DNA of 64,000 nt from assembly GCA_964016885.1 (NCBI GenBank), contig OZ024745.1, forward strand, positions 124,434,001 through 124,498,000, written 5' to 3'. The translations under genes and the position numbers were made by a program. Every line of letters begins with the position of its first letter. Positions within the stretch are counted from its first letter, which is position 1. Under the pieces are notes generated by a model that saw nothing but the letters and a program-made list of their open reading frames with translations, did no database searches and was not told the origin of the DNA. The DNA is from Eledone cirrhosa. Taxonomy: Eukaryota. Of the stretch, positions 4,564-63,057 are shown piece by piece.

Positions 4564-4706
4564 AACGAAGGAAATGTGGTAAAGAACCAGGTGGACCATA
4601 ACGCACCAAAGTACTCAATACTTAGGGTAGTAGAGTGGGTAATAGGAACCAGTAAGACCCCGACGGCTGAGCTCAAGCCGTTTCGACGGCTAATTCTGGA
4701 CTAAAT
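4564..4706 (-). mobile_element. (TA)n-anchored short element, family 'AACGAAGG' (putative PLE pseudo-LTR plus tail)
   Basis: Starts immediately after (TA)n with aacgaaggaaatgtggta. The same ~140-nt sequence recurs at 21759, 26315, 44037, 51298, 55073, 59105 and 62822, with partials at 6721 and 16389. Confidence 0.8.
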
Positions 4707-4928
4707 GAACATTTATCCTGGTATTTAAATAGCCGAGCTTCTCAAGGGGGTAATTACATATATGGTCAAAGTGATTATCACAAGGATTGGTCACAAGTTA
4801 GTAGTAATTCTGTGATGGCAAATTAGTGGGCGAAGGGGTAGCTAAACCTGCCAGTAGGAGAAAAAGGGGAGGGGGTGGAGTAGACCCATTCATGCGTTGG
4901 TAGTGCCGGCTACAGCTGGGCGTGAGGT

Positions 4929-5223
4929 CAAAGAAGATATCGTTACTCGATAAAACATGAAAACCAGCGTTATGTAACAACACTCGCAGACAATGCTTGG
5001 CAGCTGCGTGAAAATAACCAACAATTTCACCTAAAATGGGATATAATACCGGCTGCCCCCCCCCATATCCCATGGACAGGAATTTTGTAGATTATGTAAT
5101 GTAGAATTATTTTGTATTATGAAATCCAAAGACATTTTATTAAATAACAGAATAGAGCGATCGTTATACTGTAACCATCGCTTAAAATCTACATTTTCAT
5201 ATTATAAATACTACCAGGATTGA
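4929..5223 (+). mobile_element. Penelope-like element GIY-YIG endonuclease C-terminal fragment (Neptune-like), frameshifted
   Basis: Translates QRRYRYSIKHENQRYVTTLADNAWQLRENNQQFHLKWDII, then after a poly-C shift FCRLCNVELFCIMKSKDILLNNRIERSLYCNHRLK*. This matches the PLE C-terminal pattern W.L......W.I...C.LC..E...LLN.R.E...C.H. Confidence 0.75.
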
Positions 5224-5696
5224 ACGCCTGTCTCTATCTCCGTTTGATTGTCAAAATAGATATTAACATTCTTTATTAGTCTTAATTCTATCAACTCTTC
5301 TATTATTTACCTTTTAATATAAACTGCTATAGATAAAATGAGATTTCTGATTTCTTGATTCAATTCCCTAATGCATATACCAGCTGGCTACTATCATTGA
5401 TGTTATTCAGTAGCAATCGAAATCTCCCCCTTCCCCAATTGACACTTTATAATTAATACTACTGCACCAAATGACCAGCCCTGTCCACTGTCCAGTTGGT
5501 CAAGTAGAGATTAAAATTGGCACTCCCAAAATTCTTATTTAGATTTACTCATGGTATTCTCATTAGAAACCCATTATATACTTGTTTAGCAGTAAATTAA
5601 TTTACCATCTGTCATATACTATCCCCTCTTTTTCTTCCTCTATTACTAATATAAATACTTCAATTTTTCTGATTTTATCCAATTTATCCAAAATCT

Positions 5697-5805
5697 CTGA
5701 AGAAGTGACAACTGATTATACATTTGCTATCGAATACTTGCTAACATTATATGATTACGCAAGCAGCGATACATAGGTATTCCGTCTGTTACAGAAACAT
5801 ATGTC
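5697..5805 (+). ncRNA. Hammerhead-like motif with long stem II in the 3' region of the PLE fragment
   Basis: CTGAAGA, stem II base gtgaca/tgttac, GAAAC-ATAT-GTC (palindromic ACATATGT). Stem I pairs poorly, so it is probably decayed. Confidence 0.5.
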
Positions 5806-5879
5806 AATACCTAATAAATTCCTTTTTAAAAAAAAGCACTTTCATTTTATATTCATCCTTTCTATATATATATATATAT

Positions 5880-7670
5880 ATATATATATACATACACATA
5901 ATCAGATATATATACACACGTACATACAGACACATACATACACACATATATACACGCATACAAACGCATACACAAATATAGATATATGTACACACACCTA
6001 CATACGCACACACACAATTAATTATAAGAAAAAATATAATAAAAATACCGTCACATAGGAATAAAAATAAATGTAAAAATTATTATAAAGTTGACAGCGA
6101 TACAGGCAACTAATAAATGAACAAACACACGTGGTAAACAATACACACAATTGCACATACACATATATACATAAAAATAATTACACACACAGACACACAC
6201 ACACACACACATACACATACATATACATATACACATACATACACATTCACATATACATACACCCATATATATATATATATATATATATATATATCCTACC
6301 CCCCACTCTCCTGAGCGAGAAATTAATAAACATTTATTGTACTGCCTCTCTGTTTTGTCCCTGTTCAAATTTTTCCATTATATATATATATATATATACA
6401 CATATATATACATACACATACATATAAATACATACACACACATGTATGTGTGTAAAACTCTTTCTTAGATGTATTCATTGAACCTTGTTTAACTCTTAAA
6501 TATATATATATATATACATACATACACATATATATATATATATATATATATACATACATATACACACACACACATATATGAGAAAATACATAAATATTAT
6601 ATATATATAAAAATAAAAAGGTGAGAGGGGTAAACAGTTACTCTTGCTGCCCATCAATGAAGTCTAAAATCACTAATTCTAATCGTATTTTTATATAATT
6701 GTTTATGTGTGTATATATATAATAGCCTCAGAAACGGCTTGATCCCTGCCGTCGGGGCCATACTTTTTCCTATATGTATATATATATGTATATGTATGTA
6801 TATGTATGTATATATGTGTGTATTTGTATGGTTGTGTGTGTGTATGTATATGTATATATGTATGTGTATGTATATGCATAATTACATACAGTGATTTAAT
6901 GCTTATTTTCATTCATCATTTGCTCCAGGAACTTGTTGAGTGCTCTAAACATTTATACCTTTTCTAATTATTTATTTATTTATTATTTGTCGTATTCCCA
7001 ACTATTTGTTTACCCCCTTCACCTTTTTATTTTTATATATATATAATATTTATGTATTTTCTTATATATATGTGTGTGTGTATATGTATGTATATATATA
7101 TATATATATATATTTAAGAGGTAAACAAGGTTCAATGAATACATCTAAGAACGAGTTTTACACGTGTGTGTATGTATTTATATGTATGTGTGTATATGTA
7201 TGTATATATATGTATATATATATATATATATATATATATATATATATATATATATATACATATATATATATATATATATATATATGTGTGTGTATATGTA
7301 TATGTGTATGTGTATGTATGTGTATATGTATATGTATGTGTATGTGTGTGTGTGTGTGTATGTAATTATTTTTATGTATGTATGTGTATGTGCAATTGTG
7401 TGTATTGTTTACCACGTGTGTTTGTTCATTTATTAGTTGCCTGTATCGCTGTCAACTTTATAATAATTTTTACATTTATTTTTATTCCGATGTGACGGTA
7501 TTTTTATTATATTTTTTTAATAATTAACTGTGCGTGTCCGTATGTAGGTGTGTGTACATATATCTATATTTGTGTATGCGTATGTATGCGTGTATATATG
7601 TGTGTATGTATGTGTGTGTATGTACGTGTGTATATATGTATGATTATGTGTATGTATATATATATATATA
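5880..7670. repeat. Long imperfect inverted duplication (arms about 5880-6636 and 7006-7670)
   Basis: Unique blocks 6031-6190, 6450-6500 and 6580-6636 are reverse complements of 7360-7515, 7113-7163 and 7006-7062. Confidence 0.9.
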
Positions 7671-60574: not shown

Positions 60575-60790
60575 ATTTAAGATTGTTGGGTTACAACGAG
60601 TAAATAACTGATATAAAAGCACTCAACAGTTTCTGGAGTAGGTTTACGATATTAAATAAATGGAAACTATATTTATAAAACCATATTTATTTCGTTATAT
60701 ATATTTCTGGGATATCATATTAAAAATATGGTATGCCTTCCTCAGACAAAATACAATACATAAGCTGTTTTATAAATAATTAGTGACATA
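60575..60790 (-). mobile_element. PLE pseudo-LTR relic (second copy of the 17446 family) with decayed hammerhead at 60698-60745
   Basis: Shared ataactgatataaa.gcactcaac...aaatggaaactatatttataaaaccatatttat. Confidence 0.6.
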
Positions 60791-62156
60791 CCTTGTAATA
60801 ATGCAACTTCCATTTAAAAAGTTGATTTGGTAGTGAAACTGTTATGACAGTTATATAGAAAGAAAAACGAAGATGAGAAGAAGAAGATGAAGAGATGTAT
60901 GTAAATAAAGAAAATTAAAAAAAGAAGAAGATGAAGAGATGTATATAAAGAAAAACAACGGAGCGAGATAGAGAGACAAGGAGAGAGAGAAATACATTGA
61001 GGAGGTGAAAAATATAGTAGGCTGCTTTTGGACAGATAATCATCGTATATGTGAGAGGTTAAGGGAAGGGATACAGTTAAACTAGTGTATAGGAGAAAAA
61101 GAAAGAAAGATGATATATTTAAAATATATTAAAAATATATTATGTCTCATCCATTTGAATTATCAATTTTTATGAATTAGGTATTATAATGTAAATATCA
61201 GTATTCATGAATGAGACACATATCCATAATGTGTGAAAAAATGACCACATGCTCAGTTTAAAAATTCTTAGGTCTATAAGCAAAATCTGAGATAATACTT
61301 CAAACATAAGTATATATGCATTCTCGTGAAAAAAAGAGAAAAGAGAAGGTTATCTCAAATTCAAGTTGATAAATATAGACGCACATGTGAACCTACGTGA
61401 TACGCTGCACCGATTCTTATATTTCATGAAAAACTTCAATGCGTTAGAAAAGATTCCACCCTACATACATATATACATATATATAGACACAAAATATATA
61501 AGATATACATTAACATCTAAAATAACATTCAAGCCTCACTTGCATGATCATCGATCAAGCATAGAGTAGACAACAGATATCAATATTAAAATTAAAAACG
61601 CCAAGAATATCTTCGTCACTCCACAGAGTATCTAGGGACGGAAGAGAACATAGTATGCCACGCATATCGGTCATAGAATCAGAGTCAAAAGCAAACAAAA
61701 CCAAAATTGTTCACCAAGCCTTATTTAGCAGAAATCATTCAAAACTTATTCTACAAATGCTCTTATATTTATTATAGAAGTTTATCCAGCTTAAAAAATT
61801 TATTCAAAAGATTGGGAACAACGCAAATTTTAGGGTAGTTTATTTAATCTCATTAATTATATATTCATGCAGAAAGGTTTTTAAAAAAAAAAAAATTGAA
61901 GGAATCGAAAGATTTATCGCCAAGTATCATAAATAGTCAAATACCTTAAGTAAATATACTACATTTTATACTACATTTTAAATTTATATTTATATTTAAA
62001 TGTTGAGTTCAATCTATGTCTGCAACAGCTGAATAAATTGGTTCGTAAATTAAGGGAATTTTTAGATTTTAATATATATATATTTTTCACCTCCTCAATG
62101 TATTTCTCTCTCTCCTTGTCTCTCTATCTCGCTCCGTTGTTTTTCTTTATATTTAT

Positions 62157-62475
62157 ATATATATATATATATATATATATATATATATATATATATATAT
62201 ATATATATATATATATATATATATATATATATATATATATATATATATATATATATATATATATATATATATATATATATATATATATATATATATATAT
62301 ATATATATATATATATATATATATATATATATATATATATATATATATATATATATATATATATATATATATATATATATATATATATATATATATATAT
62401 ATATATATATATATATATATATATATATATATATATATATATATATATATATATATATATATATATATATATATA
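62157..62475. repeat. Uninterrupted ~320-bp (AT)n microsatellite
   Basis: Direct reading; longest of dozens of (TA)n tracts. Confidence 0.95.
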
Positions 62476-62529
62476 TGTAAAGAAAAACAATATATATATA
62501 TATACAAGTGTATATATATATATAGTGAA

Positions 62530-62742
62530 GGCGTGTGGCTGAGTGGTTAGAGAATTGTATTCGCAATCGTAAGGTTGTGAGTTCGATTCCTGGACCAGGC
62601 GATGCGTTATGTCCTTGAGCAAGACACTTTATTTCACGTTGCTCCTTCTACCTGGAGTTGCGACCGATAGATAGTATTAGCAATTGGAAAGACAAACGGA
62701 AACATTGTTCCCTCGGTCCGATTTGACAACAAAGTCGATCGT
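62530..62742 (+). mobile_element. CORE-SINE
   Basis: Near-identical to 30207-30418. Confidence 0.9.
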
Positions 62743-62821
62743 TCCTTATATATATATATATATATATATATATATGTGTGTGTGTATATATAAATATATG
62801 TATATATATATAAATATATAT

Positions 62822-63057
62822 AACGAAGGAATTGTGGAAGGAACCAGATGGACCATAACGCACCAGAGTACTCAATACTTAGGGTAGTAGAGTGGGTAAT
62901 GGGAAAAAGTATGACCCCGATGGCAGAGCTCAAGCCGTTTCGACGGCTATTTCTGGACTAAATTAGAATTATTTCACCAGGCGAAAAATTCTAATTTAGT
63001 CCAGAAATAGCCGTCGAAACGGCTTGAGCTCTGCCGTCGGGGTCATACTTTTTCCTA
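62822..63057. mobile_element. 'AACGAAGG' family element, longest inverted form
   Basis: Arms of ~70 bp around atttcaccaggcgaaa, plus an 80-nt tail at the left end. Confidence 0.9.

Follow-up and report, generated by a model that had tools for sequence, protein, structure and literature searches.

Ten copies of a short repetitive element lie in a 64,000-nucleotide (nt) stretch of the Eledone cirrhosa genome (3.0 Gb; assembly GCA_964016885.1, contig OZ024745.1, positions 124,434,001-124,498,000 of the forward strand), called here the window. BLAST and profile searches of the window recovered exactly the ten copies, with the starts, listed in a preliminary description of this DNA, and nothing further (Table 1). 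Positions within the element are numbered in the RNA sense from its tailed end, termed T2 (position 0), the tail-less end T1 being at -80. Six copies have two arms joined head-to-head, one ending at T2 and the other at T1, two consist of a T1 arm alone and two of a T2 arm alone, which is short in one case and 376 nt long in the other. In the two-armed copies one end reads CCTTCGTT-(AT)n (T2) and the other TTCCTA-(TA)n (T1). The 80-nt spacing of these fixed ends, noticed initially in the six two-part copies, was confirmed.

Table 1. Copies of the element in the window, with the template segment covered by each arm
Window position	Strand	Arms and template positions	Other features
4564..4936	-	single tailed arm, -376..0	predicted whole hammerhead at 4640-4763, core UUGAGAA
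6721..6773	+	solo tail-less arm, -131..-80	(TA)n on both sides
16389..16449	+	solo tail-less arm, ~-137..-80	(TA)n on both sides
21759..21896	-	solo tailed arm, -138..0	
26315..26431		two arms: tailed -41..0 (minus) and tail-less -156..-80 (plus)	
44037..44229		two arms: tail-less (minus, to -139/-143) and tailed (plus, from -133)	
51298..51491		two arms: tailed (minus, to ~-139) and tail-less (plus, from -133)	
55073..55240		two arms: tail-less (minus, to -146) and tailed (plus)	
59103..59291		two arms: tail-less (minus, to -138) and tailed (plus)	small deletion close to the start of the tailed arm
62822..63057		two arms: tailed (minus, to ~-167) and tail-less (plus, from -164)	

Nine copies are mini-elements touching (TA)n, as first described, while the one at 4564 extends to 4936 and contacts (TA)n at one end only. 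This is the sole window copy with a complete predicted hammerhead, and its 80-nt tail is identical in 40 of 40 scored genome matches. The inner junction is different in every copy, as had been stated, yet the end points cluster rather than being random, a feature that was missed. The tail-less arm at 26315 contains sequence absent from its tailed arm. At 44037 the joint has 4 nt of microhomology and private variants are common to both arms. By eye, the tailed arm at 55073 starts at or adjoining the predicted ribozyme cut (-98), while aligners end it at -85 to -90. The copy at 62822 gave sub-threshold microRNA matches in Rfam; such palindromes are easily misfiled as miniature inverted-repeat transposable elements (MITEs), short interspersed nuclear elements (SINEs) or microRNA hairpins.

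Abundance was estimated by BLAST and profile scans of 99 evenly spaced 10-kb genome stretches (989,600 bases), which hold 38 and 40 insertions, respectively, or one per 25 kb. The corresponding genome content is 112,000 copies when weighted by contig and 121,000 when unweighted (bootstrap 82,000-163,000). The very large family deduced from one copy per 6 kb of window is thus real (~110,000-120,000 copies), but that density was a local excess which overstated the genome about fourfold, the sampled density being ~1/4 of that of the window. An exact 34-letter pattern, found in some subfamilies only, has 31,898 arm matches genome-wide. The preference for (TA)n, whose absence had been named as fatal to the original interpretation, holds: (TA)3 is present at an end of 38 of the 40 sampled insertions, compared to 15% of random intervals. 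Empty (TA)n alleles were not observed among contigs from four sequencing runs placed on 43920-44600, none of which crosses the insertion.

The parent element

The short copies derive, with truncation at the 5' end, from a Penelope-like element (PLE) that its motifs assign to the Hydra clade, and a PLE origin is very nearly certain. Extension of genomic copies reached a 3' untranslated region (UTR) and an open reading frame (ORF) in the same sense, yielding a full-length parent with reverse transcriptase (RT) and GIY-YIG domains, the search for which had been advocated. Its full-length units measure 3.1, 3.4 and 3.6 kb in three subfamilies with ORFs 86-90% alike. The locus L057 (L numbers label genomic loci fetched for comparison) is complete: (TA)n, an inverted T1 arm, an upstream partial repeat with tail, a 93-nt leader, the ORF, the 3' UTR, the repeat, the tail and (TA)n. 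A partial tandem (pseudo-long terminal repeat) with an inverted 5'-truncated copy and an optional tail is present in L057 and in other loci. The PLE interpretation proposed beforehand is supported by this parent; clade and ribozyme had escaped notice.

Of 20 long copies fetched, one, L320, has a whole open frame, of 740 codons. Conserved positions are altered in this frame (H349 in place of R, F580 in place of C). Among 8000 proteins scored, 1125 are homologues of the L320 product. Its structural model (pLDDT 90.6) matches telomerase reverse transcriptase TERT and other RTs over residues 1-480, TERT being ranked first by Foldseek and RTs being tied at the top by VIA. Residues 589-692 superimpose on the GIY-YIG catalytic domain of I-TevI (Z 9.1, root mean square deviation 2.5, 89 of 92 residues aligned). 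The residues YIG, R, E and N of this domain are kept in 98-99% of 117 aligned proteins. Sequence searches of the parent protein in Pfam and PDB gave no matches, and GIY-YIG matches were obtained for only 2 of 20 homologues searched. Several motifs given for the Hydra clade are present, namely DKT, the CxCX5C linker and CxxC and CxH flanking E and N, and the endonuclease is C-terminal. In place of the third Cys of the linker, L320 has F; this Cys is kept in L327, L332 and L334. The RWK motif reads RWR in L320, homologues having R37 in 99%, W38 in 100% and K at position 39 in 65%. In L320:2189-2338 and L051:1938-2087 the frame is open for 50 codons 5' of the ATG, across the tail.

Two copies, L247 and L251 (1501-2330), carry internal deletions. 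Both depart from the ORF at a near-equal position, and the element sequence continues from -124/-134 and -98. Candidate origins are a hotspot of template jumping and a master copy that was itself deleted.

Arm end points and the predicted hammerhead

End points were mapped at loci picked by their tail alone; 90 were retrieved, and 86 remained after removal of three window copies and one duplicate. Tailed arms end between -79 and -130 in 17 loci, between -131 and -146 in 51, between -147 and -170 in four, between -171 and -250 in none and farther away in 14. Among 65 adjacent inverted matches, 55 begin at T1 and 47 end at -131 to -146. Both arms of an insertion therefore mostly end 51-66 nt beyond T1, at a nearly equal place of the template. 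The 61 T1/T2 pairs comprise 55 with both arms short, six with both long and no mixed pair (rho 0.44, p 0.0003), the long ends being matched as well (e.g. -451/-451 and -491/-488). The two arms carry the same subfamily signature in 22 of 28 cases (shuffled mean 9.2). Their joints display microhomology or filler that is often templated. The end points of copies from across the genome, whose plotting had been recommended at the outset, show variable inner junctions and no constant terminal repeats.

Read-through was assessed in 30 copies selected for leader and ORF start, 19 of which extend beyond -131 within the upstream repeat. None of the 19 stops before -171, whereas, of 69 tailed arms that were newly primed and extend to -131, 55 have stopped by -170 (p 9e-11). 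The stop is thus tied to the repeat where synthesis begins, ruling out a general sequence roadblock. A sister family, F2, stops equally far from its own T1 (50 of 67 arms within 41-60 nt), with the ribozyme core located elsewhere.

The segment -200 to -80 is predicted, by eye and by folding, to form a type I hammerhead ribozyme whose stem I has its base at T1. Stem I is followed by the core YUGA-N-AA and a long stem II, then by GAAA, a stem III whose loop is palindromic, and GUC, with the predicted cut at -99/-98. The three-way type I fold has a z of -2.4 and 4 of 200 shuffled sequences fold equally well. In 58 full cores, 16 combine U3 with A8, 40 C3 with A8 and two are of other types; position 8 is A in 57 and never G. 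The canonical core CUGANGA was not encountered and the family is classified as a hammerhead variant. Rfam gave no hammerhead in the window among the best 150 matches listed, nor in the repeat of the parent. No useful covariation was detected in the hammerhead, the copies being 90% alike. Most short copies do not extend into the 5' half of the core and consequently escape motif searches, by which the ribozyme of the family is missed as well.

A pattern for very short palindromes has 1078 matches genome-wide and none for the reversed control. In the first 98 places listed, all on C1 and counted by eye, ~36 have both arms at the cut, ~40 are joined at the palindrome of loop III and the rest are scattered. 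Stricter patterns, in which the tail-less arm stops precisely at the predicted cut and an untemplated A or T follows directly, yielded 54 and 155, i.e. 209, strand matches (reversed-pattern controls, 0). Most of these have both arms at the predicted cut, separated by few untemplated letters, often a single A or T, as is expected when the enzyme runs off an RNA end. Relative to the total of the 34-letter pattern this class represents, in order of magnitude, ~1% of copies. The RNA seems to have been cut at -99/-98, perhaps by the predicted ribozyme, leaving a genomic trace of cleavage, though a precise structural stop may have produced these ends instead. The first 100 palindrome rows suggested that U3-A8 subfamilies cleave and C3-A8 subfamilies do not. 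This was rejected by whole-genome counts, the cut-site ratio being 54:155 (0.35) and that of abundance 28:72 (0.39, first 100 listed matches of the 34-letter pattern).

Origin of the short insertions

Parent structure, two fixed ends, (TA)n targets, matched arm ends and matched subfamily letters are directly established. The explanation that best accounts for the family, to which we assign a probability of roughly 0.6, is that of short PLE insertions generated by copying from two starts, with an early stop and with run-off at hammerhead-cut ends. The nuclease of the element would cleave a (TA)n run on either strand; two RTs, primed by the two DNA ends of this break, would copy a single RNA from T1 and T2. 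The action of two enzymes on one RNA is probable. The two complementary DNA (cDNA) ends would then be joined head-to-head via microhomology or short filler. Most reactions would halt 51-66 nt past T1, where the enzyme must leave its initiation complex and the trailing enzyme halts behind the leading one, which is the least certain step; for a stall linked to initiation as the cause of the early stop the balance is about even. Enzymes escaping it would synthesize long arms. In ~1% of events the template would already be cut by the hammerhead and both arms would run off the cut.

A more speculative extension, put forward tentatively, is that Hydra-type PLEs have a telomerase-like template boundary. 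An RT-nuclease dimer, primed from both break ends on one RNA, would be retained by the initiation complex ~55-60 nt past the first start, and most events would abort as 200-nt palindromes. The A8 hammerhead, also with C3, would cleave in vivo and the 100,000 copies would preserve the PLE cycle in fossil form at nucleotide resolution.

Several observations weigh against the favoured scheme. The tail-picked loci are best matches from two subfamily groups rather than loci drawn at random. Of 52 arms in the random sample, mapped onto one reference only, 19 end at -131 to -146 and 16 at -118 to -130. Mixed long copies exist, a short arm ending at -134, -105 or -68 beside a long one in L335, L327 and L331. 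Family F1 has no single stop distance, although its ends are blurred by divergence from the reference; a universal distance, which F2 fits and F1 does not, was abandoned. G8 is absent from 58 of 58 cores and 40 have the C3-A8 mismatch, yet the subfamily that is mostly C3-A8 is not depleted in cut-site ends, so that the predicted core is only a candidate catalyst. The L320 frame, despite its openness, may be dead.

An unlikely alternative keeps the two-enzyme insertion but ascribes the main stop to run-off from the end of a short RNA, produced by nuclease trimming to a protein-protected edge or by a promoter near -139. It accounts for the coupling of arm ends at all lengths, and the cut-site class indicates that run-off from an RNA end occurs. 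The motif TTAGT/TCAGT at -139, where ends are common, is initiator-like. A main mRNA start at this position with a cap-G signature is nevertheless unsupported, as none of the 19 long copies starts at the stop region and untemplated joints have no excess of cap-type G (by eye). The ends are also ragged across 16 nt, compared to the sharp cut-site class, and L335 and L247 stop at the stop region in spite of long RNA at hand. Nucleases may nonetheless have trimmed the RNA to the footprint of a bound protein.

The next alternative, already disfavoured and improbable, is that one enzyme starts from T2 and the cDNA folds back at a palindrome, priming its own copying to T1; a similar self-priming interpretation is found in PMC3846280, as far as the excerpt goes. 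It would explain matched arm ends, the near-palindromes of the stop region and the very short copies joined at the palindromic loop III. Copying back from T2 is difficult to reconcile with tail-less arms that exceed the tailed arm by at least 20 nt in 6 of 55 short pairs, with solo tail-less copies (6721 and 16389) and with the long copies, whose long arm ends at T1 in 12 of 20 and at T2 in six. Moreover, the letters between the arms of cut-site copies are untemplated, whereas those of a hairpin loop would have a template.

The short copies would, in a still less probable scenario, be a self-propagating non-autonomous family, transcribed whole with its junction and recopied by the enzyme of the parent. 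Their great numerical excess over parents and the recurrence of a few junctions are compatible with this, but most junctions are private and subfamily letters are common to short and full-length copies. The commonest junction is found in either polarity and in more than one subfamily (L179, L264 and L266 versus L195, L269 and L200), a scatter which fits a joining hotspot and not descent. A MITE or foldback DNA transposon targeting TA, although short, inverted and TA-flanked, is refuted by unequal and variable arms, one end being internal to the other, by the lack of constant terminal inverted repeats genome-wide and by a parent that encodes RT and GIY-YIG and no transposase, in agreement with the initial view that these are not fixed-repeat MITEs. 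A non-long terminal repeat retrozyme, with tandem units containing a whole hammerhead, was discarded for the short copies, which are inverted and mostly without core.

Related elements and neighbouring families

Twin priming of the long interspersed nuclear element (LINE) LINE-1 also uses two target strands to prime on one RNA, leading to an inversion, but the internal position at which its second primer anneals varies, and its two cDNAs represent different stretches of the RNA. In the present family the two starts are fixed and the same 50-65 nt are copied into each arm.

Comparisons with published PLEs refer to excerpts of the papers cited. Inverted tail-less and tailed arms in (TA)n belong to the known anatomy of PLEs. 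The E. cirrhosa element has in common with the Hydra clade (Craig et al. 2021; motif list in section 11; PMC8557442) a single ORF coding for RT then a C-terminal GIY-YIG, the DKT, CxCX5C, CxxC and CxH motifs, (TA)n targets, a type I hammerhead near the 3' end and inverted, tailed copies truncated at the 5' end. It differs in a unit of 3.1-3.6 kb instead of <3 kb, a tail of 80 nt instead of 30-40, and a YUGA-N-AA core with long stem II instead of the CUGANGA of all Hydra rows in file S2. Its ~100,000 copies, mostly <250 nt, also set it apart from the clade as described there. It is a family distinct from Hydra-1_Obim of Octopus bimaculoides, protein and ribozyme being different in a by-eye comparison made without alignment.

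The Anolis PLE Poseidon cuts both strands in vitro and has two internal RNA starts matching tail-less and tailed ends (Frangieh et al. 2024; PMC11167929); it is a predicted dimer and uncut RNA is its main template. Two internal starts and an AT-rich target are common to both systems, and uncut RNA would be the main template here too. The Poseidon starts are inside the ORF while here they lie ~90 and 170 nt 5' of the ATG. No Poseidon RNA reads begin or end at the ribozyme cut according to that excerpt, whereas ~1% of the genomic copies end there in E. cirrhosa, and an early stop is not described in it. For PLE hammerheads, a U3-A8 core variant was found in Schistosoma Cercyon (Cervera and de la Pena 2014; PMC4209133). 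This variant, the palindromic loop III, opposite-strand motif pairs 100-700 bp apart and many lone motifs from truncated PLEs are also features of the present family, but its commonest full core is C3 with A8, unlike those hammerheads.

The overall anatomy is already known. Coupled end points, the cut-site class and an 80-nt tail with a hairpin-like motif common to sister families did not turn up in the literature covered. In the literature excerpts covered (including PMC3846280, PMC13282606 and PMC3088659, and excluding Repbase, Dfam and subscription papers) the family, an early coupled stop and genomic ends at a PLE ribozyme cut are absent. Octopus repeat libraries may list the family under another label. 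The origin of the inverted repeats and tails of PLEs and the role of their hammerheads are presented as open questions in the excerpts of PMC8557442, PMC11167929 and PMC4209133. The present family offers a very large set of young insertions whose two starts are fixed and whose stops are coupled, a cut-site class included, in which models can be tested by counting.

The window contains also an array (26969-29166) built from a 310-bp unit that bears a canonical type I hammerhead. In it 3.1 units are inverted relative to 4.0 units, at 99.6-100% identity. It has (TA)n on both sides and its outer ends differ by a tail of ~38 nt. The tandem units, each with a whole hammerhead, are those that define a retrozyme. 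Arrays 99% alike are found in L219 and L274, and a short inverted copy in L284. This retrozyme-like array, inserted with PLE geometry, is a direct sign that arrays of its type use PLE machinery, as proposed in the excerpt of bioRxiv 10.64898/2026.07.22.740005.

Ends of other hammerhead-bearing PLE-like families are located by (TA)n at window positions 26198, 60745, 17627, 57164, 8328, 13192, 24588 and 15557 and at many loci; several of these families likewise have two ends, together with short copies in inverted orientation. Five families, the one described here, F1, F2, F6 and F7 (L077, L122, L098 and L173), share a predicted hairpin, (A/G)CTC...GAG(T/C)RC, within a few nt past T1. By eye, a similar motif also occurs in the coral consensus that precedes Hydra-1_Obim in the excerpt of PMC8557442. 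The hairpin is a candidate protein-binding site. At 40997-41782 the window has a 261-codon frame which we take to resemble the zinc-finger end of LINE ORF2. Tandem repeats of 183 bp (18726-19276) and of 165/228 bp (8985-9662) carry SINE-like sequence.

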